This document shows, piece after piece, positions 1 to 36,777 of a stretch of 64,000 nt of DNA. The translations under genes were made by a program, and so were the position numbers. Source of the DNA: Dehalococcoidia bacterium (GTDB taxonomy: Bacteria > Chloroflexota > Dehalococcoidia > Lucifugimonadales > JAGWBF01); the NCBI GenBank assembly GCA_965261965.1, contig OZ253489.1, positions 130,969 through 194,968 on the forward strand, read 5' to 3'. How positions within the stretch are numbered: the stretch's first letter is position 1; every line of letters starts with the position of its first letter. The notes below the pieces were generated by a model that worked only from the letters and a program-made list of their open reading frames with translations, did not search any database and was not told the origin of the DNA.

Positions 1-1
1 A

Positions 2-1783
2 GTGATCGCTGCTCTTCGGGTGGTGGAAGGCGCTGTGATCGTGGTGGCCGCCGCAGCCGGGGTTGAGGTTGGCGCCATCCGAAGCTGGAACCAGTGCTCA
101 GAAGCTGGAATTCCCCGCATTATCTTTGTGAATAAGCTGGACAGGGAAAACAGCGACTTTCAACAAGCCCTAGAAAGCATCCGCTCCAACTTCGGCCGCA
201 GTTGTGTGCCCTTTCAGATACCTGTGGGATCTGAGCAGAATTTCACCGGTATGATAGATGTGCTGAACCCGGGCGATGAGGTTCCAGCCGAACTGGCGTC
301 ACAGGTGGAAGAGGCCCGGGAGATGCTTATCGAAGCTGTTGCTGAAACCGATGATGATCTCGCCACCAAGTACATTGAAGGCGAAGAGCTGTCCCAAGAA
401 GAGATATCGGGCGCCGTACGAGAAGCGATCATTTCGGGGCATATCGTGCCCGTCTTTTTGGGTTCGGCCATTATGAACATAGGCGCCGAAGAGCTGATGT
501 CCGGGGTGCTGCGTTATATGCCCTCTCCTGCTGAAGGGAAAGGCGTCCCCTTCTTGGACCCGATATCTGGAGATTCGGTGGTGTCGGAACCTGATCCTTC
601 GGGGGCCTTGGCAGCTTTTGTGTTCAAGACCACAGCCGATCCTTTTGTGGGCAAGCTTTCGTTGTTCCGGGTGTTCGGTGGGATGCTGCGCAGCAACTCC
701 GAGGTGTGGAATGAGGCGCGGAATACATCCGAGCGCATCGGCCAAGTCTATACTATACGGGGAAAGACTCAAGAGCAGACCCAGGAGATAGGGCCGGGGG
801 ACATAGGGGCGGTGGCCAAGCTGGCTGGCACCGTTACGGGGGATACCCTCACCCAAAAAGAAAAACCCATCTCCGTAAAACCCATAGGGTTCCCCAAAGG
901 CTTCTACACGATGTCCGTTCAACCGAAGTCCAAAGCCGATGTGGATAAGATGTCAATGGCCCTGAGCCGGGTGCTGGAAGAAGACCCCAGCTTGCACCTG
1001 ACCCGTGAACCCAATACCGGAGAAACCTTGGTTTCCGGCTTTGGAGAAACGCAGCTAGAGGTGGCGATGGAAAGGGTCAAGCGCAAGTTTGGGACCGAGT
1101 TGGAGCTTCAGTTGCCCAAGGTCCCATACAAAGAAACCATCAGCTCCGTGACCAAGGCTGAATACAAACATAAGAAGCAGAGCGGCGGGCATGGTCAGTA
1201 CGGGCATGTGATCCTGCGCCTCGAACCTTTGGGCACCGGTCAGAGCTACGAGTTCGGCCAGGAGCTTGTGGGTGGTTCGATACCCAAAGAGTATGTCCCT
1301 TCGGTAGAAAAGGGTGTTGTGAAAGCCCTTCAAGAGGGGGTGCTGGCAGGATTTCCGATGGTGGGCGTAAAAGCTGTTCTCTATGATGGCAGCTTCCATG
1401 ATGTGGATTCATCGGGTATATGCTTCGAGATCGCCGGCTCTTATGCTTTGCGGAAAGGCGTATCTGAAGCTGGGCCCAAGCTACTGGAACCAATAGTGAG
1501 GCTGACGGTGACCGTTCCAGATGCTTACAACGGGGATGTGATAGGCGACCTTAATGGCAAGCGGGGCAGAATCATAGGGATGATCCCGCAAAACGGTGAA
1601 ACGGTCATAGAAGCTGAAGCTCCCCAGAGCGAGGTGCTGCGCTATGCTACCGATCTGCGCTCCCTGACCCAAGGCCGCGGCTCGTATGTGCTGGAGTTCG
1701 ACCGCTACGAAGAAGCCCCCGCCCATGTCACCCAGCGAGTATCAGAAGAAGCCAAAAAGGCCAAAGAGGCTCAGCGGGCCTAA
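2..1783 (+). CDS. fusA: Elongation factor G-type translational GTPase, 5' end outside window
   Basis: 593-aa ORF open at the window edge. It has the G-domain tail (IIFVNKLDRE), EF-G domains II-V (GETQLEVAMERVKRKFG, KKQSGGHGQYGHV, FHDVDSS) and a Lys/Ala-rich C-terminus. Confidence 0.9.
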   Translation: MIAALRVVEGAVIVVAAAAGVEVGAIRSWNQCSEAGIPRIIFVNKLDRENSDFQQALESIRSNFGRSCVPFQIPVGSEQNFTGMIDVLNPGDEVPAELASQVEEAREMLIEAVAETDDDLATKYIEGEELSQEEISGAVREAIISGHIVPVFLGSAIMNIGAEELMSGVLRYMPSPAEGKGVPFLDPISGDSVVSEPDPSGALAAFVFKTTADPFVGKLSLFRVFGGMLRSNSEVWNEARNTSERIGQVYTIRGKTQEQTQEIGPGDIGAVAKLAGTVTGDTLTQKEKPISVKPIGFPKGFYTMSVQPKSKADVDKMSMALSRVLEEDPSLHLTREPNTGETLVSGFGETQLEVAMERVKRKFGTELELQLPKVPYKETISSVTKAEYKHKKQSGGHGQYGHVILRLEPLGTGQSYEFGQELVGGSIPKEYVPSVEKGVVKALQEGVLAGFPMVGVKAVLYDGSFHDVDSSGICFEIAGSYALRKGVSEAGPKLLEPIVRLTVTVPDAYNGDVIGDLNGKRGRIIGMIPQNGETVIEAEAPQSEVLRYATDLRSLTQGRGSYVLEFDRYEEAPAHVTQRVSEEAKKAKEAQRA

Positions 1784-15830: not shown

Positions 15831-16667
15831 TCAGATTGCCAAATCAAATGGCAAGTCGCTGATGTCGCGCAGTCGGCGGCCAGTCACCAGGGTCCCCAAC
15901 AATTCAGCATCCGAATCACTATCCGAGGCGGCGCCGATCAATTCTCTCAGGGCAAAGTGATAGATGCAGTCGATATCGCCTGTACCATAGGCAAGCGATG
16001 CGATTCGTCCGGGCAGGGGTTCTCCTACGACGACCACTATGTGCGGTGTCTTGCCCTTCCGGTTGCGAACAAGGTTCAAGCCCTCAGTACGTGCGTTTTG
16101 CGAGCGGTCGCTGCGAATCGTCCATTTGCAAGAAACACTGGCATGCATGATACCCACTTGCGAATTCGTGCGCCGCAAAGGGGTATGGACTGCCGTTTCG
16201 TCATCTGCCAACAGGACCTGGTTTTCGTTGATCTTGGAGTCGGGGACCGGTTTTCTGCAAATAACAATGTCGGGCTTTACTATGTAGTCGCCGAAGATGG
16301 TCCGCAGTTCCTCATGCTCATCCAATACCCGTCGCAGGTCTGACAGATGTGTGTATTGCTCATAGTCTCGAATGTTTCTTCCCAAAGAGAATTCCCATTC
16401 GCCCGGACGCAAATGAGGTAGAAGGCCAAAAGCATCGCGCAAAAAGTCCCTTGTCGCCGCCTCGAACTGATGGCCCACTGTTTGCCCTGCCAGTTTTTCG
16501 CCTTTTATCTGAATCCCAATTCTGGCAACAATGCCTTTACCAAGTCTGACGCTTGCAGTGCTTCCGCTATCGGCGTTATTCGGAATCCCGGACGTGGTCT
16601 CACGCAATACATCGCGGCAAATCCGGCGATGATAGGCTCGTCGAAGAGTTTCCATTCTGCCAGCCAT
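15831..16667 (-). CDS. Type II restriction endonuclease, PD-(D/E)xK with S-x-K variant (Cfr10I/NgoMIV/Bse634I-like)
   Basis: The long ORF 15831-17117 is trimmed to the ATG at 16667, because the Arg-rich N-terminal extension overlaps the methylase gene. KPDIVI and VSCKWTIRSDRSQN motifs. The ATG overlaps the methylase TAA (TAATG). Confidence 0.7.
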   Translation of the reverse strand: MAGRMETLRRAYHRRICRDVLRETTSGIPNNADSGSTASVRLGKGIVARIGIQIKGEKLAGQTVGHQFEAATRDFLRDAFGLLPHLRPGEWEFSLGRNIRDYEQYTHLSDLRRVLDEHEELRTIFGDYIVKPDIVICRKPVPDSKINENQVLLADDETAVHTPLRRTNSQVGIMHASVSCKWTIRSDRSQNARTEGLNLVRNRKGKTPHIVVVVGEPLPGRIASLAYGTGDIDCIYHFALRELIGAASDSDSDAELLGTLVTGRRLRDISDLPFDLAI

Positions 16668-18028
16668 TACGACTTCACCAGACCGATCACATACTCTTCG
16701 TGCATACGCTCCTCGATCTGCGAGTACCGCAGGTCGCCCCAACGGGCAGGCATCATCCGTTTGTCTCGGTCGAGGCGGCGAACTCCGATTTCTGCGAGGT
16801 CGAAGCCAGCGCTTGCGCCGATGGCGGCAAGCCCCTTGTGCGTCTCTACGTCGACGCCGCGCAGATTCGAGGTCCCGACGACGATTACTGCCGCCTTGCC
16901 TTGCTTCAGTACCCGCCGCATTTCCGCAATCACGCCGGACATCTCGCCGAAATAACGGCGCAAGCTGGCAGCTTTCTTGGCATCTCGTTCTGTCAGTCTT
17001 GACAATGTCTTTTCGCACTGGTCCGGCAGGTTGTTGTACTCTGTCCCGGATGCGCCGTCGTGTCCCAGGTACTGAGCCCGAATTCTGGAAAGGTCGCTGA
17101 TCTTCCAGCCGAACCACACCAGGGAGAACTTATGGGCCCTCATGTAGTCGATGGCGTTGTTGGCGTATGGCGGCGATGTGATGATCAGATCTACGCTTGC
17201 AGGCGGCAGGCCGGTGTCGGCCGCACCGGCCGCGCGAATTTCTGCATCGCGGTGTAGTTCCCCCAAAGCCATCACGTCGGGCCCCTTTAAAGAAGGGGGC
17301 TTGCCGCTGTCATGCGGCCTGCTCTTGCCGAGAGCGGCCACATTCCGCTCCAGCCGTTTCCCAAACTCCACGAACGCTGAGGCCGGCGTCTTCTTGGGGT
17401 CCCTGTGGGGGCGCGTGTGCGCAAGGTCCCGCGCCAGTGAGACTCCGCCCGACTTGGCGATGATGGTCGAAGAAAACACCACGCGGAGAAATTCTCCAGT
17501 CCCTCCTTTGGGCAACGCTTCGATTCGCTGTAGAATGGCCAGCAATTCCAGCTGCTGTTGTGGCAGGAACCAATAGTCAATGAACTCCGCTGTCTTCGCG
17601 TCGAACCGCAATTCGCAGTCCCGTCGCAGCCTGGGGCCGTCCTCCCGATAATCGGTCCAAGCGGCCTTCAGGACACTTCGCCCAGTTTGCAGGGCAGTTG
17701 ACGGGTCGATGGTTGTCAGCTTGGCTGCTGCGATCATTCTTGCCAGAGGGTCGATGTCACAACCAACGGTGCGTCTGCCCAGCCGCACAGCCTCCACGAG
17801 CGTGGTCCCGGAGCCGAGCATCGGGTCGAAGACAACGTCGTTCGGGCTTGAGAGCTGCGAGATCAGGAATTCCGGTAGTTGGGGTGGAAACTTCGCCGGA
17901 AAGGGGTGCCAAGCATGAGAGCCATAGCTGCCGTTCGAGCCGTGAAAATCCAGATTGGCCCGCAATGCTGCCATGCCCGCCGGGTTCTTACCTCCCGCAT
18001 ACCAAAGAGGCAGCACGCCTTGCGTCAT
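16667..18028 (-). CDS. DNA amino-methyltransferase (N4-cytosine or N6-adenine)
   Basis: 453 aa. Motif I is VFDPMLGSGTT and motif IV is IITSPPY, about 200 aa apart, so the target-recognition region probably lies between them. Confidence 0.85.
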   Translation of the reverse strand: MTQGVLPLWYAGGKNPAGMAALRANLDFHGSNGSYGSHAWHPFPAKFPPQLPEFLISQLSSPNDVVFDPMLGSGTTLVEAVRLGRRTVGCDIDPLARMIAAAKLTTIDPSTALQTGRSVLKAAWTDYREDGPRLRRDCELRFDAKTAEFIDYWFLPQQQLELLAILQRIEALPKGGTGEFLRVVFSSTIIAKSGGVSLARDLAHTRPHRDPKKTPASAFVEFGKRLERNVAALGKSRPHDSGKPPSLKGPDVMALGELHRDAEIRAAGAADTGLPPASVDLIITSPPYANNAIDYMRAHKFSLVWFGWKISDLSRIRAQYLGHDGASGTEYNNLPDQCEKTLSRLTERDAKKAASLRRYFGEMSGVIAEMRRVLKQGKAAVIVVGTSNLRGVDVETHKGLAAIGASAGFDLAEIGVRRLDRDKRMMPARWGDLRYSQIEERMHEEYVIGLVKS

Positions 18029-18370: not shown

Positions 18371-19324
18371 ATGTCTGAACGCAGGATCAACTTCGGAGTT
18401 TCGGCTCCTGACAATTACGGCGCCATCGCTGCTTATGCTGAAGAAGCTGAGTCCCTCGGGTTTGACCGTCTGAGCTTGGGAGAGCACATCATGGATGAGA
18501 ACCCTCCACGCCCCACCGTGATGAGCATACCAGCCTTGGCTGCTGCCGGAGGAGCCACCCGGTCCCTGCGTCTTCTTACGGGCATAGTCCTGATCCCCCT
18601 CTACCACCCGGTCATGTTGGCCAAGCTTGCCACGACGTTGGATGTGGTGAGCGGTGGACGGTTGGACTTCGGCATCGGCGTGGGAGGCCAACGCGATACC
18701 CGGGGCGAGTTCGAAGCTATGGGAGTGCCCGTCGAAGAGCGGGGCCGCAGGGCCAACGAAGCAATCCGCTTGATAAAACACCTCTGGACCGGAGAATCGG
18801 TTACGTTCGAAGGCCGCTTCTACAGTTGCCGGGATGTAACACTGCTGCCCACTCCTATCCAAACGCCCCATCCGCCAATATGGGTTGCGGGTCGGGAAGA
18901 TGCAGCGATGCGCAGGGCTGCAAGGTATGGGGATGGATGGTACCCATACCTGTTCACCAAGCGAAGGCTCGAAGCCAGCATACAAAAAGTGCGGACCGAA
19001 GCTTCAGCAGCAGGAAGGGATTTGGAGGGGTTTCGGTGGGGTTTGCTTCAACCCACCTGCATAGCCGACACCCGAGATGAAGCGCTCAAGATAGCTGCGG
19101 CCAACGTTGGGCAAAGGTATGTTACAGCCGAACGAAGCGCCGAAGATATAGCTCAGGCGCTGTGCATTGCAGGCACAGCCGCGGATTGTATCCGGAAGAT
19201 CGAAGAACGAGTGGAGATGGGAATAACCGATATTACATTACAATGGATTGCGCCGGACCTAGGATCTGTGCGGGACCAGATGCGTGCGGCGGCAGCAAGC
19301 ATCTTACCATACTTCAACACATGA
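18371..19324 (+). CDS. Luciferase-like monooxygenase (LLM) class, F420/flavin-dependent oxidoreductase
   Basis: 317 aa. LLM hallmarks: LGFDRLSLGEH, GGRLDFGIGVG, PPIWVAG. Confidence 0.85.
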   Translation: MSERRINFGVSAPDNYGAIAAYAEEAESLGFDRLSLGEHIMDENPPRPTVMSIPALAAAGGATRSLRLLTGIVLIPLYHPVMLAKLATTLDVVSGGRLDFGIGVGGQRDTRGEFEAMGVPVEERGRRANEAIRLIKHLWTGESVTFEGRFYSCRDVTLLPTPIQTPHPPIWVAGREDAAMRRAARYGDGWYPYLFTKRRLEASIQKVRTEASAAGRDLEGFRWGLLQPTCIADTRDEALKIAAANVGQRYVTAERSAEDIAQALCIAGTAADCIRKIEERVEMGITDITLQWIAPDLGSVRDQMRAAAASILPYFNT

Positions 19325-20090
19325 CCTGGGAAGCTCAATCTGCCGATAATATAGAGCCACTAGCGGCCTTTGCGGGAAAGAAAGTCCTTGAATGCCTGCT
19401 CCACACCGAACTCTTTGACCGTGGTAGAAAGAAGCTCCCGTTCATTCCGCCACAACGGATTGCGCCGGACCTAGGGTCTGTGCGGGACCAGATGCGGAAG
19501 GCGGCAGCCAGCATCTTACCATACTTCAACACATGACCTGAGAAGCTCAATCCGCCGATAATATAGAGCCACTAGCGGCCTTTGCGGGAAAGAAAGTCCT
19601 TGAATGCCTGCTCCACACCGAACTCTTTGACCGTGGTGGAAAGAAGCTCCCGTTCATTCCGCCACAAAGGATTGCGCCGGACCTAGGATCCGTGCGGGAC
19701 CAGATGCGTACGGCGGCAGCCAGCATCTTACCATACTTCAAAGCATGATTTAGGAATCTCAATCCGCCGGTAATATAGAGCCACTAGCGGCCTTTGCGGG
19801 AAAGAAAGTCCTTGAATGCCTGCTCCACACCGAACTCTTTGACCTTGGTGGAAAGAAGCTCCCGTTCATTCCGCCACAACGGATTGCGCCGGACCTAGGA
19901 TCTGTGCGGGACCAGATGCGTACGGCGGCAGCTAGCATCTTACCCTACTTCAAAGCATGATTTAGGAATCTCAATCTGCCGATAATATAGAGCCACTAGC
20001 GGCCTTTGCGGGAAAGAAAGTCCTTGAATGCCTGCTCCACACCGAACTCTTTGACCTTGGTGGAAAGAAGCTCCCGTTCATTCCGCCACA
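19245..20090. repeat. 212-bp tandem repeat x4 containing the 3' ends of two convergent genes
   Basis: Units start at 19245, 19457, 19669 and 19881, an exact 212-bp period. Each unit contains the last ~26 codons and stop of the LLM gene, the spacer, and the last ~31 codons and stop of the crotonase gene. Copies carry SNPs. Confidence 0.9.
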
Positions 20091-20766
20091 TCTCTTCCCA
20101 GGTTAAACCCACGTTGTGAGACATCAGGTATTTGGCGCCTTGGACCGATTCAGCCCTATTGGCTGCGATGGTCGACGCTATCTCCATGGATTTATCGAGA
20201 AGCTGATCGTTAGGGACCAGGTGGTTGAGGAGGCCGATCCGGTAAGCTTCGTCAGCTTGCACCGCCCTGCCGGTGAACAACAGCTCTTTGGCGATGGGCC
20301 AACCCACCTGCATGGGCAGCGTCCAAGTGCAGTTCAAGCGGCCATAAGCTGCGGCGAGAAACCGGAAGCTGGTGCGTTCGCAACCCACCCTGATATCCAC
20401 CGATGTGGCGATGACGCTACCGCCACCGTAGGCCAAGCCGTTCATCGCTCCTACCGTGGGTTTGGTACAGTTGGCCAGGTGCCAGCTATACCCAGCTTTT
20501 AGGGCTTTACGCCTCTCATCCTCTTCTTCAGTGAGTTCCACAGCATCCCGCCGTTGTTCGTGGATATCTCCACCGGCCGAGAAGGCCCGCTCACCAGAGC
20601 CGGACAAGATGATCGCGCCGACATTTTCGTCTTCCTCAGCATCAGATAAAGCAGAATCAACCTCCGAAACCAGCTGAAAGCTCAATGCATTGAGCACATC
20701 AGGCCGGTTTAGGGTGATGGTGGCTACTCCCTGTTCTTTGGATACGATAATAGTTTCATAGTCCAC
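19996..20766 (-). CDS. Enoyl-CoA hydratase/isomerase (crotonase) family protein
   Basis: 256 aa with a GTG start. The crotonase fold signature is visible (ITLNRPDVLNALS, FSAGGDI, GLAYGGG). Confidence 0.85.
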   Translation of the reverse strand: MDYETIIVSKEQGVATITLNRPDVLNALSFQLVSEVDSALSDAEEDENVGAIILSGSGERAFSAGGDIHEQRRDAVELTEEEDERRKALKAGYSWHLANCTKPTVGAMNGLAYGGGSVIATSVDIRVGCERTSFRFLAAAYGRLNCTWTLPMQVGWPIAKELLFTGRAVQADEAYRIGLLNHLVPNDQLLDKSMEIASTIAANRAESVQGAKYLMSHNVGLTWEEMWRNERELLSTKVKEFGVEQAFKDFLSRKGR

Positions 20767-20809
20767 GTTGTTACTCCGGTGGTTGGTGTTAATCTCCGCG
20801 CAGACGATA

Positions 20810-20849
20810 TCCTGCAGGAGCAGATGATATCCTGCAGGAATGGTGGTGA
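20810..20849. promoter_or_regulatory. Two tandem 20-bp palindrome-containing boxes upstream of the crotonase gene (candidate operator)
   Basis: GCAGAYGATATCCTGCAGGA occurs twice (20810-20829, 20830-20849). Each box contains the perfect 10-bp palindrome TCCTGCAGGA. They lie 44-83 nt upstream of the GTG at 20766. Confidence 0.3.
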
Positions 20850-20896
20850 GATTATTATTTACAAATCCATTCTAATTGCCGAACAGTATTAGGTCA

Positions 20897-21090
20897 ACGA
20901 AGCTACCGGGGCCACTGCGTAAACGAAGCTACCGGGGCCACTGCGTAAACGAAGCTACCGGGGCCACTATGTAAATGAAGCTTAGCGGGGTCGCTGCGTA
21001 AATGAAGCTTAGTGGGGTCACTGTGTAAACGAAGCTTAGCGGGGTCACTGCGTAAATGAAGCTTAGTGGGGTCACTGTGTAAATGTTCAG
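20897..21090. repeat. 26-bp tandem repeat, about 7 copies
   Basis: AGCTACCGGGGCCACTGCGTAAACGA-type units start at 20901, 20927 and 20953. Three units of one variant are followed by four of a second variant (AGCTTAGYGGGGTCRCTGYGTAAAYGA). There are no unique spacers. Confidence 0.85.
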
Positions 21091-21129
21091 ACTTCAAGGG
21101 GTCAACCTTGAGGGCCTCTTCGAATTATC

Positions 21130-21945
21130 ATCCCGAACGCCGGCTTATCACGCCGAGCCGCCCACTGTAATTCCGAACCCCCTACTGTCATTCCGAACCG
21201 CAGTGAGGAATCTAAAATGCCCCGACCAAAGCCTCGTCCAATACTACGATAAGCCATAGGGTGAGCAGGCATCTTAGATTCTTCGTCGTGCGCTCCTCAG
21301 AATGACAGTGAAGGGGCGCACTCCTCAGAACGACAGTGAAGGGGCGCACTCCTCAGAATGACAGTGAGGAGGGTGCTCCTCAGAATGACAGTGGGGGGCG
21401 CGCTCCTCAGAATGACAGTGAGGAGGGTGCTCCTCAGAATGACAGTGGGGGGCGCACTCCTCAGAATGACAGTGAAGGGGCGCGCTCCTCAGAATGACAG
21501 TGAGGAGGGTGCTCCTCAGAATGACAGTGAAGGAGGGTGCTCCTCAGAATGACGATAAGGGGGCGCTACTCAGAATGAGAATAAGGGGAGGCGCCAGCTG
21601 TAATTCCGAACCCTCCCCCTGTCATTCCGAACCGCAGTGAGGAATCTAAGATGCCCCGACCGAAGCCTAGTCCATTTCTACGACGAACCATAGGGTGAGC
21701 CAGCATCTTAGATTCTTCGTCGTGCGCTCCTCAGAATGACAGTGAGGGGGGCGCGCTCCTCAGAATGACAATAAGGGGAGGCGCCAGCTGTGATTCCGAA
21801 CCCTCTCCCTGTCATTCCGAACCGCAGTGAGGAATCTAATATGCCCCGACCAAAGCCTCGTCCAATACTACGATGAGCCGTCGGGTGAGCAGGCATCTTA
21901 GATTCTTCGTCGTGCGCTCCTCAGAATGACATGGAGGGGAGGGCG
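21130..21945 (+). repeat. Family A array 3
   Basis: Three 120-bp copies (21187-21306, 21621-21740, 21811-21930) and about ten ~31-bp CTCCTCAGAATGACAGTGARGRGGGYGC sub-repeats (21296-21600). Confidence 0.85.
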
Positions 21946-22101
21946 CTCCTCAGAAGGTGGGGTGCGGGGAAACGCGGCGGCCTCAGCTGGTAGCGCCCGG
22001 CCTTGGCTGGGTGGCGCTGCGGGCGCAGATGGGTGGCGGTCGGGCGCAGCGGGGAGGCGCTGCGGGCGCGAGTGGGTGGCGGTGGGGAGGCTGGCTTACC
22101 T

Positions 22102-22695
22102 TTAGTAGGTTGTGGGGTTGGTTTCTGCTGTCAAAGCGTTCTGTATCTGTTCTTCCAGCTTACCCGCAGTTACGAAGCCGCCGTATTTTCGGACTATGTT
22201 GTGGCTGCGGTCCAAGAAGAATGTGGTCGGAAAGCTTATTACACCATACTCCTCGAAGATAGAACCGTTGGGGTCAGCTCCTATGGCGTAGGTGATACCC
22301 AGTTCATTGATAAATTTCTGACCATCTTCTTTGGAATCCAGACCCACCAGTTGGATGCCTATAAACTCCAAGCCGTCGGCGCGATGCCTACGGAAAGAAT
22401 CTTCCATCTCGGGCATCTCTGCCCGACAGGGGGCACAAGAAGGAAACCAGAAGTTCACAACCAGCGCTTTTCCCGAAAACCGGTCCAAGCTGATCAGTTC
22501 CCCCGCTTCATAGTTTTCGTTGCCGAACGCACCGAACTGGAAGGGGGGCGCCGGATCATCATCTGCAGTCTTGGCCGAATCACCCCCGCCGCCGCAGGCG
22601 CCAGCTATCAAAAAACTGGCTATCATAACCGCAAACCATGTTGGAAACCGTAGCTGTTTCATCGCTTCAAAGGTAAATGTCGCTGCTGTTCTCAA
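22102..22695 (-). CDS. TlpA/ResA-like thiol-disulfide oxidoreductase, probable lipoprotein
   Basis: The thioredoxin-fold motif is WFPSCAPC. Lipobox-like FLIAGAC. The start is either the TTG at 22695 (overlapping the upstream stop) or the ATG at 22662. Confidence 0.8.
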   Translation of the reverse strand: MRTAATFTFEAMKQLRFPTWFAVMIASFLIAGACGGGGDSAKTADDDPAPPFQFGAFGNENYEAGELISLDRFSGKALVVNFWFPSCAPCRAEMPEMEDSFRRHRADGLEFIGIQLVGLDSKEDGQKFINELGITYAIGADPNGSIFEEYGVISFPTTFFLDRSHNIVRKYGGFVTAGKLEEQIQNALTAETNPTTY

Positions 22696-29245: not shown

Positions 29246-29390
29246 CTTCCCATACACCTCCGGGCCTCGATGTTGCTTCCATCGGCTGCTTATCTTCAAA
29301 AGAACAAGGAACAGTCGGTATCGTAACCAGCAGCAGCTTGCCAAGTCAACCAGATAGCATTGCAGGGCAACCCCATTTTATACCCCCCAT

Positions 29391-30986
29391 GAGTTTGTCT
29401 CATAGACCGGTGGGCGGGTTGAGTAACACAGGTGTGGGAGCGATGCGCCTCAACAGAGGTTGGCCCGTCCAGTTGCACCGGCCACTTGTCGGCCCCCAGA
29501 AAGGTCGTCTACTCTCTTAGTTCCATGGCGCCTTGACCCAGTCCCAAGGCGCTTGGCCGCTGCGCCATAGCTTGAGCAAGTTATGGGTCGTCCCTGCCAG
29601 CGACCACTCACTCTGTGCAGCGCCCAACCCCCGTCTCATAAACCGTCGGAACCCCTGGCCTTCCTTGACCTGTCCGAACACCGGCTCCACCAGTACACCC
29701 CGCTTCTTGTACAGAGCTCGGCCTCGCTTTGTCAGCAGCTTGCGCTCCATCCTGTCCCTCGGGCTCAGTCCTTTTGGTATACGCCCTCGGGGACACCCCT
29801 TCTCCCATAGCAGCTTCCGCTGTTTCCAATCCTTGGTGGTGGCAATAAGAAGCTCAGGCATCTCTGGCCAGGGGCAAGCCCTGATGTTGGCCTCACTCCA
29901 GTACCCGGCATCGGCCAAGCCCGCTTTGGGCCGGTCCTCTATGCCGGCTGCTTCCAGAGTATGCGCCATGGTTTGGAGCATCGGCTCCAGTTGCTGCACA
30001 TCGTTGGCCTCTTGGGTCACTCCAACGGCTACTATGATCTGCTCCTCGCTCACCACCGCCTGGGCATTGTAGCCCTGCACGTACCCTTGCCTGGTCTTCA
30101 TGATACGACTGTCCGGGTCGGTGGTATTAGCCTTCGCCCCTTCGGTAGGAAGTGGCTCTACCACCTTGGGCTTTCGCCCTCGCTTCTTTTTGCCTGTGAC
30201 ATCTTCTTCTGCCCGCCGTCGCTCCACGTGCTCTTGGACAGCCTTGGCTCCTGCTTCAGCCTCCCGCTGCAGACGTTCCTTGGCTTCCTTCAGGCGCTTG
30301 AGCCGCTCCGTCCGTCCCCCTAGCCCTTCCGGTAGCTCATCCCCTCGCCGGTCGGGACCATAATGGGCATCCTCTTCAGCATCCGTTGCCTTGGCCTCTG
30401 CCAACATGCGCCGCACTTCTTCTTCAATGGCCTGGTGGCTCCGGTTGGTGGCCAGGGCCGCGTTGGCTGCCACCTTCGTCCCATCAAGAGCCACTACCCC
30501 CAACTTCACCAGACCCGCTTCATGGCATAACCTCAGTACCTCTACAAAGAGCTCCTCGAACGCCTCCTCGCGCTCCGCCCTAAAGCGACAGATGGTACGG
30601 AAGTCTGGCTGCCGGTTGGCCGCCACCACCCGGAATCCTACATCTTCCTCCAGAGCACGGGCTATGCGCCTGGAACTGCGTACACCCAGGCAGTAGCCGT
30701 ACAACAGGATGGCCACCATCATCCCCGGATCGTAGGCCGCTGCACCCCATCCATCACTTCGATAGACTGCATAGAACTCCCTCAGATCCATCTGGCCTAC
30801 TGCATCTACAATGAACCAAGCCAAGTGACCCTCACTCAGCCAATCCCTCATGGACGGCGGCATCAAGTAGCTCTGGTCTCGCTCGCAACTCAGAAGGTTA
30901 TAAGCCATAGTGTCCTACCTGCCTGATGTTTCTATGAGCTTACTGCTTCGCCAACCCCGCAGGAAGGGGGTTTATGGGACACGCTC
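29391..30986 (-). mobile_element. IS1182/IS5-like insertion sequence, copy 1 (1596 bp)
   Basis: Imperfect terminal inverted repeats GAGTTTGTCTCATAGACC (left end) and GAGCGTGTCCCATAAACC (reverse complement of the right end). A 4-bp direct repeat CCAT lies on both flanks (29387-29390, 30987-30990). Confidence 0.85.
29517..30908 (-). CDS. IS1182/IS5-family DDE transposase
   Basis: 463 aa. N-terminal DUF772-like region (YDPGMMVAILLYGYCLGVRSSRRI), a central charged coiled segment and a C-terminal DDE region. The family name is from memory. Confidence 0.88.
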   Translation of the reverse strand: MAYNLLSCERDQSYLMPPSMRDWLSEGHLAWFIVDAVGQMDLREFYAVYRSDGWGAAAYDPGMMVAILLYGYCLGVRSSRRIARALEEDVGFRVVAANRQPDFRTICRFRAEREEAFEELFVEVLRLCHEAGLVKLGVVALDGTKVAANAALATNRSHQAIEEEVRRMLAEAKATDAEEDAHYGPDRRGDELPEGLGGRTERLKRLKEAKERLQREAEAGAKAVQEHVERRRAEEDVTGKKKRGRKPKVVEPLPTEGAKANTTDPDSRIMKTRQGYVQGYNAQAVVSEEQIIVAVGVTQEANDVQQLEPMLQTMAHTLEAAGIEDRPKAGLADAGYWSEANIRACPWPEMPELLIATTKDWKQRKLLWEKGCPRGRIPKGLSPRDRMERKLLTKRGRALYKKRGVLVEPVFGQVKEGQGFRRFMRRGLGAAQSEWSLAGTTHNLLKLWRSGQAPWDWVKAPWN

Positions 30987-35124: not shown

Positions 35125-35545
35125 GAAAAGCTGGGGCGCTACTCCGGCTGATGCACGGCGACGGGCATGGTGGGTCTGTCAGCAAACCAGATGGCAACTC
35201 CTCCCAGGGCGGTCAGTCCGGCAAACACCGAAAAGCTGGGGGCGCTACTCCGGCTGATGCACGGCGACAGGCATGGTGGATCTATCAGCAAACCAGATGG
35301 CAACCCCTCCTAGGGCGGTCAGTCCGGCAAACACCGAAAAGCTGGGGAGCTACTCTGGCTGATGCACGGCGACGGGCATGGTGGGTCTGTCAGCAAACCA
35401 GATGGCAACTCCTCCTAGGGCGGTCAGTCCGGCAAACACCAAAAAGCTGGGGCGCTACTCCGGCTGATGCACGGCGACGGGCATGGTGGGTCTGTCAGCA
35501 AACCAGATGGCAACTCCTCCCAGGGCGGTCAGTCCGGCAAACACC
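35125..35545. repeat. ~105-bp tandem repeat x4 made of the MFS gene 3' end
   Basis: Units start at 35125, 35230, 35336 and 35441. Each holds 14 nt of downstream sequence, the stop codon and the last ~29 codons (..[23 protein letters not shown]). Only the fourth unit is joined to the gene. Confidence 0.9.
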
Positions 35546-36777
35546 AAAAAGGGAATAAGATAGGACCCTCGGGTGTCGAACATGTAGCCGGCGAATAGGG
35601 GAGCCACCATCATGCCGATGTTGTTGGGCAGCTGAGACAGCCCCATGATGGTGGCAAAGGACTTCCGCCCGAAGTAATCTCCCCGGATTGCGGTCAGCAG
35701 AGGCACCCGTCCACCGAACCCTATGCCATAAAACACCGCGAACACGTAGACCATCGCCACATTATCCGCGAATGCTATCACCGTTATGCCCACCGTCTGG
35801 AACGCTATGAACACAAAAATCGCCGCCGGCTTGGATGTCCGGTCAGCCAGGTATCCGGCCATGGTCTGGGTTGGCAGCGCCACGGCGGTATAGGTCAACA
35901 CCACTATCCCGGCAGAGCTCAATGACATCCCCATATCCGTCAGCTTCGGCACCAAATGAAGAGCCAAGCTCACTATGGCTACGCTGGAAGATAGATGAAC
36001 AAAGGAGATGATCCAAAAAGCCCGGGTGCGCAGGGCTTGCCTGGCGGTGAACTCCGGTTCTTCGAACCCGGCGGATTCAGTCCTTGATCCCGTACTAGCC
36101 GGCCGTGGAGGATCGCCGTCAGGGAGGAGTCCGTGGTCTTCGGGACGGTTGCGAATGAACTTGGTTGCAGGCAAGCAGAACAGCAGGACGAAGACCCCGA
36201 TGCCAAGGGTAGCTTTATGAAAGCCCACCGTATCGATCACCACAGCCAGGACTGAAACCAGCAGCCCGGCAATATGAATGCCGGACATGGCGGACGACAT
36301 AGCAATGGACCGCTTTCTGATGAACCAGTTGTTGACGATGGTGATGGAAGCGAGCCAACCCCCCAGGCCGGAGCCCACGGTGAGAATGATGAACGCCAGG
36401 TAGAATTGCCAGATCTGTTCGACCGTGGAAAGATAGATGAAGCCGCACCCCATGATCGAGAAGCCGATGAAAATCATCCGGCGGCTGCCGAAGTGGTCGA
36501 TCAGAAATCCTTCTATGGGACCGATAGCTGCACCCTGCACCCGGGAAAAGGCGAAAGCTCCCGATAAGGCAGTCCGGCTCCAGCCGAACTGACGTTCCAG
36601 AGCTACCATGTATGTGCCCACACCTTGGAAAACCCCCAACGACATGACCGATATCAAGAAAGAGACCACAGCAACCATCTTCCAGCCATAGAAGATGCTG
36701 CCTTTCCCACCTGAACGGCCCAAGAACCGGTCATCCATCTCCTGGGAAGAGCGGCGGCTATCCTTGTCAGCGGACAT
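35455..36777 (-). CDS. MFS transporter
   Basis: 440 aa with about 12 hydrophobic segments in a 6+6 arrangement and a central hydrophilic loop. Confidence 0.85.

Follow-up and report, generated by a model that had tools for sequence, protein, structure and literature searches.

Two convergent genes in the genome of an uncultured Dehalococcoidia-type bacterium are separated by a tandem array whose units are made up of their own 3' ends. The genes encode an LLM-class (luciferase-like) flavin/F420-dependent oxidoreductase and an enoyl-CoA hydratase/isomerase (crotonase), and they lie in a 64,000-nt stretch (the window, to which positions refer hereafter) that spans C1:130969-194968 of the genome labelled G000, a single 3.43-Mb contig of 57.9% G+C. 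The nearest relatives of its proteins that bear a name are from Dehalococcoidia MAGs. The array holds four copies of a 212-bp unit, and the same junction carries one and two copies in contigs of two sister strains (L017 and L019, respectively). Because these near-conspecific assemblies carry one and two copies, the locus is a copy-number polymorphism akin to a variable-number tandem repeat (VNTR). The explanation that we consider likely is that of a locus-specific tandem duplication of variable copy number, of the type known as bacterial VNTR or minisatellite, that serves no dedicated function. This kind of structure is already known, and the locus is more dynamic than was assumed in an earlier note on this DNA.

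Tandem Repeats Finder (TRF) returns a single array at the junction, with a period of 212, 4.0 copies, 95% matches, 0% indels and a score of 1499, and its refined length is 4 x 212 + 3 nt (Table 1). The copies stand head to tail and, at 212 bp, their unit falls among those of at least 10 bp that characterize VNTR. The LLM open reading frame (ORF) is continuous only with the first unit and the crotonase ORF only with the last, and both are full length. The LLM protein matches PF00296 over profile positions 19-313 of 314 (E = 4e-64), the crotonase matches PF00378 over positions 2-241 of 251 (E = 7e-45), and the lengths of both proteins (317 and 256 aa, respectively) agree with those of their orthologues. 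Six orphan tails, three of LLM and three of the crotonase, are left between the two genes. TRF, the ORFs and the Pfam matches thus bear out the anatomy described in the earlier note (two convergent 3' ends, two intact genes, six orphan tails and the starts of the units), and the spacer within the unit, given there as about 30 nt, is present with a measured length of 35 nt. Pairs of units differ at 6-16 of the 212 positions; the substitutions between units reported earlier do exist, but they cluster in the spacer and are not evenly scattered. No copy of the unit was found outside its locus in a search of the whole 3.43-Mb genome, in which these four copies are the only ones, and the unit is hence locus-specific and not dispersed, as expected of a VNTR. 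A 38-base pattern conserved in the unit had 0 matches among JGI metagenome contigs, and exact-protein look-ups of the LLM and crotonase proteins of the window and of the 84%-identical protein P0002 gave no match. A second array with a 212-bp period lies in intergenic DNA at C1:1586274-1587552 (6.0 copies, 97% matches); its sequence is unrelated to that of the LLM/crotonase unit, and the shared period looks coincidental.

Table 1. The array at the LLM/crotonase junction, its parts and the flanking genes (positions in the window; the last five rows give nucleotides of the 212-bp unit).
Feature	Position	Strand	Description and basis
Tandem array	19240..20090	.	4 x 212 bp + 3-nt microhomology; TRF, refined length, unit unique to locus
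LLM-class flavin/F420-dependent oxidoreductase gene	18371..19324	+	317 aa, intact; ORF, Pfam PF00296
Crotonase gene	19996..20766	-	256 aa, intact; ORF, Pfam PF00378
ACA microhomology, left copy	19240..19242	.	Duplication breakpoint; single-copy L017 allele, array remainder
ACA microhomology, right copy	20088..20090	.	Followed by unique crotonase coding sequence (TCTCTTCC...)
Unit 1	19245..19456		Working LLM tail (N-type, ...YFNT*); orphan crotonase tail, stop 19360-19362, extends to 19456
Unit 2	19457..19668		Orphan LLM tail 19457-19536 (...RKAAAS..YFNT*); orphan crotonase tail 19572-19668
Unit 3	19669..19880		Orphan K-type LLM tail 19669-19748 (...YFKA*); orphan crotonase tail 19784-19880
Unit 4	19881..20090		Orphan K-type LLM tail 19881-19960; working crotonase tail and stop 19996-20090
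LLM tail	unit nt 1-77		Last 25.7 codons (~26)
LLM stop	unit nt 78-80		TGA
Spacer	unit nt 81-115		35 nt
Crotonase stop	unit nt 116-118		Complement of TAG
Crotonase tail	unit nt 119-212		Last ~31 codons

The comparison of this junction among related genomes, which the earlier note had suggested, yields 1, 2 and 4 copies in sister strains and a single copy in other genera. The convergent LLM and crotonase pair is conserved in five genomes that belong to other genera of the family; there the two genes lie about 13-60 nt apart and no array intervenes, and for this reason one copy is, judging from these genomes, the ancestral state. The sister-strain contigs were reached through the 90%-identity cluster of the LLM protein, which has three further members. 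In L017 (ENA ERZ25068966), with 95.8% identity over 6 kb of flank, the two genes lie 35 nt apart and the unit is present once. In L019 (ENA ERZ25072821), with a flank identity of 98.2%, the gap measures 247 nt, which is exactly 35 + 212, and TRF reports 2.0 copies. Two short-read scaffolds of the L017 type terminate inside or just past the unit, which is the expected effect of a repeat or a strain variant on a short-read assembly graph. The contention that the array is not an assembly stutter has therefore held up, for independent sister-strain assemblies show either the novel junction with two copies or the undisturbed junction with one. Single-copy strains exist, but one copy is also the ancestral state, and a reversion cannot be distinguished from an allele that was never duplicated.

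The sequences of the units point to exchange among strain alleles. Seven units were aligned (four from G000, two from L019 and one from L017), and around the LLM stop they come in two types: an N-type (...AACACATGACC...), found in L017, in units 1 and 2 of G000 and in unit 2 of L019, and a K-type (...AAAGCATGATTTAGGAATC...), found in units 3 and 4 of G000 and in unit 1 of L019. The order of units is [N][N][K][K] in G000 and [K][N] in L019, and on these sequences simple expansion cannot convert either order into the other. Recombination between units has occurred, because alignment columns 42 and 74 hold all four combinations of alleles. Moreover, the working LLM tail of L019 (P0122) ends in YFKA, an ending that in G000 is found only in orphans (e.g. 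that of unit 3), and the working tail of L017 (P0121) carries RKAAAS and is protein-identical to the orphan LLM tail of unit 2 in G000. Variable sites across the seven units amount to 12 in the 35 nt of the spacer, 9 in the 77 nt of the LLM tail and 6 in the ~92 nt of the crotonase tail. In both tails of this array taken together they fall 11, 2 and 2 times at codon positions 3, 1 and 2, a pattern that is, to judge by its codon phase, that of alleles diverged under coding constraint. The divergence between units (2.8-7.5%) is akin to that between the flanks of different strains (1.8-4.2%).

Some 20 further arrays at gene 3' ends leave orphan tails in this genome (e.g. C1:598865-599640, 2755766-2756221, 586954-587576 and 3185640-3185929). 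A genome-wide test of tails was carried out on 20 arrays that begin inside the 3' end of a gene, with mismatch-tolerant matching of the tail. The orphan tails alone have 35 variable sites at third, 11 at first and 13 at second codon positions (chi-square p = 1e-4), and the same test without the LLM/crotonase array gives, in that order, 28, 9 and 11 (p = 0.001). Single-base codon variants of orphans in the 12 arrays with at least two orphan tails comprise 31 synonymous and 21 non-synonymous changes, when random placement of the observed mutation spectrum leads to an expectation of 31% synonymous in orphan tails (p = 2.5e-5); the G+C content by codon position (0.63, 0.44 and 0.70) does not explain this excess. 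The possibility that orphans are merely emitted from, or overwritten by, the working copy was rejected, as it predicts a synonymous excess of at most about 1.8-fold and the observed one is about 3-fold. Since the excess surpasses that limit, part of the orphan variation must, on this reasoning, have arisen while both lineages were working tails, as strain alleles that recombination later joined. And since orphan types are working tails elsewhere, and orphan variation is mostly synonymous, the orphan copies are best regarded as exchanging with working alleles and not as simply decaying in place. The earlier conclusion that the array is not very recent, drawn from the divergence of its units, is not supported by this analysis: the differences are mosaic, allelic and mostly at third positions, orphan variants work in other strains, and unit divergence does not date the array because the units are mosaics of strain alleles.

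A plausible history of the locus would begin with an illegitimate event joining two sites that share the trinucleotide ACA, about 26 codons before the LLM stop and about 31 before the crotonase stop. The event would likely stem from replication slippage or template switching at this microhomology, and the intervening 212 bp would have been duplicated. Such a duplication would keep every original base and add a single new junction, with LLM reading through the first unit and the crotonase through the last, and it would be tolerated in spite of 212 not being a multiple of 3 because both genes still read through the end units. Once two copies were in place, unequal homologous recombination and gene conversion, both between units and with the alleles of other strains, could alter the copy number (1, 2 and 4). 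The same exchange could shuffle the unit variants, and the orphan tails would then be recently exchanged alleles of working tails instead of old relics. That several gene ends carry arrays would follow from the unusually fast accumulation of arrays in this genome. Structure, intact genes, the single copy of other genera, polymorphism, microhomology, mosaicism, coding-type variation and the frame filter discussed below can be read directly from the sequences, and the molecular mechanism of duplication and its neutrality are what we infer.

In the single-copy L017 allele, the left breakpoint reads ...TTACAATGGATT... and the right one ...CGCCACATCTCTT..., with ACA at both (the contexts are also given as ...TTACAATGGATTGCG... 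and ...CGCCACATCTCTTCC..., respectively). The fact that all three internal junctions of the array and the junction of L019 read CCACAA[C/A]GGATT points to one founding event common to G000 and L019. The junctions are exactly head to tail, the copies whole in number and free of any foreign insert, as in microhomology-mediated tandem duplication (MTD). At the LLM/crotonase locus the evidence for microhomology is suggestive only, and the signal is clearer in the whole-unit lengths of arrays across the genome. Among 44 comparable arrays (without the dominant core motif, outside genes or spanning a gene end, with a period of at least 40, at least 90% matches and no indels), 24 have a length of n x period + 0-12 nt, against 8.6 expected with random array ends. 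Nor is copy-number variation at gene-end arrays limited to this locus, for an array at the 3' end of an MFS-transporter gene (window 35125-35551) holds 4.1 copies of a 105-bp unit here and 3.0 in the L019 strain (L041 19471-19790, in reverse-complement coordinates). The breakpoints of the MFS array share a 5-nt microhomology (AAAAG), one of its units carries a 1-nt insertion here, and its unit variants are common to both strains.

Other differences between the strains were observed in the window. Between the crotonase and redoxin genes (window 20766-22102) lies a spacer filled with repeats, whose length goes from 984 bp in L017 through 1,336 bp in G000 to 1,762 bp in L019, and because of these differences in length the GAATGAC-type arrays are, from these alignments, also variable in copy number among strains. 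A 1,596-bp insertion sequence (IS) copy upstream of zwf (window 29391-30986) is missing in the sister strain, where the L041 alignment jumps from 29390 to 30986, and since that strain lacks it the insertion is, on this comparison, recent and strain-specific. A pair formed by an NgoMIV-like nuclease and an N6/N4 methyltransferase (window 15831-18028) is intact here and in L019. In L017 (2471-4666) gene calling splits both the nuclease and the methyltransferase in two (68+209 aa and 224+246 aa, respectively), and these splits may be either real frameshifts or errors of a contig with 5x coverage.

The tandem-repeat content of this genome is unusual. Genome-wide, TRF detects 1,462 non-redundant arrays that account for 10.8% of bases, and the GTCATTC/GAATGAC family makes up about two thirds of the tandem-repeat bases. 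When the load is compared in 200-kb samples, it reaches 9.1% in this genome, 3.0% and 1.1% in two genomes of the same genus (G001 and G003, respectively), and 0.55% and 1.3% in two genomes from other genera of the family (G013 and G019, respectively). Loss of mismatch repair was considered as a cause of this load and discarded, MutS being present and intact. A MutS2/Smr-type gene (MutS_V + Smr domain, ~815 aa) occurs in G013 (C1:3083701-3085077) and G019 (C1:1853534-1854907), and a search of the single-contig genomes G000, G001 and G003 of this genus yielded none. Its absence was also rejected as the cause, because the load does not follow the distribution of the gene (G003 is without it and has 1.1%, G019 carries it and has 1.3%). 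The size of the G000 genome exceeds by 0.8-1.0 Mb that of the three genomes of the same genus, each a single contig, that were searched (2.4-2.6 Mb). The genome also contains very large in-frame arrays, namely 77 copies of 330 bp (25 kb, C1:2711325-2736850) and 51 copies of 333 bp (17 kb, C1:1004792-1022040). The ORFs that contain the 330-bp array run to 6,227 and 2,871 codons and presumably encode giant surface proteins of repetitive sequence.

The distribution of array periods reveals a filter on reading frame. Among intragenic arrays with a period of at least 40, the period is divisible by 3 in 52 of 54, whereas end-spanning arrays are spread over the three remainders modulo 3 as 13, 11 and 15, and intergenic ones as 172, 163 and 171. 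A tandem duplication retains all of the original sequence and adds one junction, and for this reason it harms a gene only if both of its breakpoints lie inside that gene. The bearing of this filter on the location of arrays was assessed by placing units of the observed periods at random and discarding intragenic placements, with 79 relevant arrays. Observed and expected counts are, respectively, 50 and 56.8 for intergenic arrays, 15 and 9.2 for arrays over one 3' end, 7 and 9.5 over one 5' end, 4 and 2.9 over a 3' and a 5' end, and 2 and 0.4 over two 3' ends. Gene termini are hence not a strong hotspot, and placement is near random once intragenic events are removed. In the genome-wide scan for enrichment at gene termini that the earlier note had put forward, a mild excess is upheld but a strong enrichment is not, the frame filter explaining most of the observed pattern.

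Several observations weigh against the explanation favoured here. The ACA microhomology spans only 3 nt, near chance expectation, and the junctions carry C or A where a clean ACA join predicts T; because of this base, the founding join could have been imprecise (e.g. end-joining with a filled-in base) or mutated since. The contigs of both sister strains are metagenome assemblies. The excess of arrays over one and over two 3' ends is mild but left over after the frame filter, and may stem from the harm done when promoters and start regions are duplicated or from errors in the ORF map, since the gene map is rough (longest ORF plus a codon-usage score, with no trained gene finder). Finally, the probable neutrality of the array derives from a lack of signals.

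One alternative is that the array is retained for its effect on expression of the convergent pair, be it through a longer read-through overlap (antisense or double-stranded RNA control), as a spacer, or as a multiplied weak terminator that reduces polymerase collisions. In the single-copy state only 35 nt separate the two genes and a read-through overlap is plausible, each unit bears a weak hairpin with a T-rich tail (GGCCGCTAGTGGCT/CTATATTATC) at the crotonase stop, and arrays over two convergent 3' ends exceed the random expectation given above. Nonetheless, the stem of that hairpin has 5 bp, terminator-like matches number 3 against 2.6 in shuffles, and four segments of 101 nt about the stops show no folding beyond that of shuffled sequences (z from 0.05 to 1.88). 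Likewise, a search of the window against Rfam at gathering thresholds gives no match, and the promoter-like ATGACC-18-GATAAT of N-type units is only a 9/12 match. None of the terminator, promoter, RNA-structure or Rfam readings of the unit rises above background, and an intrinsic (bidirectional) terminator or a structured RNA was consequently discarded. The terminator and RNA-structure results speak neither for nor against the extended complementary RNAs that, according to the earlier note, convergent transcription across the array would yield. Furthermore, the copy number varies among strains that are 96-98% identical and whose genes are otherwise unchanged, similar arrays sit at unrelated gene ends, including non-convergent ones, and other genera manage without the array. 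We thus regard a role in expression as unlikely.

A role for the orphan tails as a cassette reservoir, from which recombination would swap alternative C-termini (and 3' untranslated regions, UTRs) onto the LLM enzyme, seems to us more doubtful still, in spite of the variation of the working LLM tail by strain, of its match to orphan types (YFKA in L019, RK in L017) and of orphan variation that has been filtered as coding sequence. The changes are confined to a single surface-type residue (A/K/T) and to the two residues at the C-terminus (NT/KA), sites where orthologues vary freely (EG, RG, KD, ER), and the crotonase tail is nearly invariant. The locus lacks an immunity-like or partner gene, a recombinase and a variable domain, both enzymes are ordinary metabolic ones, and the like pattern in many unrelated genes fits a by-product of recombination. 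Lastly, it is highly improbable that the array is an artefact in which the assembler strung co-occurring strain alleles in tandem: the units do resemble strain alleles, the contig is metagenome-derived with an estimated contamination of 4.8%, and two short-read sister-strain scaffolds break right at the junction, but the period is exact, the three internal joints are identical and at a microhomology, an independent assembly with two copies has the identical junction, the MFS array behaves alike, more than 1,400 arrays of many periods lie on one contiguous 3.43-Mb contig, and haplotype joining would not put the breakpoints at one base every time.

Taken as a copy-number-variable duplication without dedicated function, the locus itself is of little weight, for neither enzyme is damaged and there is no hint of a function. 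Its interest resides in providing a clean natural case of short tandem duplications that survive at gene boundaries and not inside genes, where nearly all arrays are in frame. It also illustrates that the age of an array is poorly gauged from the divergence of its tandem copies, for here the units are shuffled strain alleles with mostly synonymous variation. With a repeat load about 3 to 20 times that of its relatives, the host is a candidate for studying how repeat instability is controlled. Searches of the literature returned no report of this locus, of these samples or of repeat-rich Dehalococcoidia. A broader idea, which we put forward as a speculation with a small chance of being right, is that this species has an unusually active genome-wide process that makes unit-exact duplications and exchanges unit alleles within arrays and between strains, with orphan tails as a standing reservoir that replaces working C-termini and 3' UTRs. 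If true, this would represent a recombination-driven mode of gene-end evolution, and it would help explain a 3.4-Mb genome with 11% tandem repeat in a genus of 2.4-2.6-Mb genomes.

Among known systems, dispersed intergenic repeats such as MIRU, and the GTCATTC...GAATGAC arrays of this same genome, also form tandem copies of variable number between genes. In contrast to them, the unit described here is found at one locus and is built of local gene ends, and a dispersed repeat family of the REP, MIRU or SRM type was rejected on account of this single locus and of the lack of a GTCATTC/GAATGAC core. Polymorphic toxin loci (cdiA-CT/cdiI, rhs-CT/rhsI) offer a parallel in their orphan C-terminal modules, detached 3' ends that lie downstream of a full gene and can replace its working end by recombination. 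The LLM/crotonase locus, however, has no toxin, immunity gene or divergent domain, and its tails are 93-97% identical and belong to metabolic enzymes. A polymorphic-toxin cassette array was accordingly dismissed, since no immunity gene follows the tips (the unit being two tails and a 35-nt spacer) and there are no divergent toxin domains.

Rearrangements by slipped misalignment in E. coli are reportedly the subject of work by Lovett in 2004. MTD and its frame filter have been described by Dan et al. (PNAS 2021, PMC8639346). The resemblance of the present arrays to MTD lies in a short identical sequence that bounds the segment in the single-copy allele (AAAAG at the MFS array and, suggestively, ACA at the LLM/crotonase one), in lengths of whole units plus 0-12 nt, in a probably reversible or unstable state and in the removal of out-of-frame events only inside genes. 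On the other hand, the homology here is shorter (3 nt, when 5-8 nt are usual in MTD), the C or A at the junction departs from a clean join, and the duplication is fixed and amplified to four diverged units instead of being a transient subclonal variant. The locus would behave as an MTD followed by unequal recombination, although with a homology of just 3 nt and an imprecise junction it can be assigned to that class only provisionally.

The likeness to VNTR lies in the head-to-tail, locus-specific units of tens to hundreds of bp, the strain-variable number of copies, the few variant positions per unit and their shuffling by unequal recombination, with arrays within genes in frame and the others intergenic. 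Bacterial VNTR or minisatellite loci, of the kind that van Belkum et al. in 1998 and Le Fleche et al. in 2001 are said to have described, reportedly serve for strain typing by multiple-locus VNTR analysis (MLVA). Unlike them, the unit described here holds the coding ends and stops of two convergent genes and leaves six orphan tails, being neither purely intergenic nor a protein repeat, and its host has an unusual array load. As in those systems, the arrays of this genome would serve as markers for strain typing.

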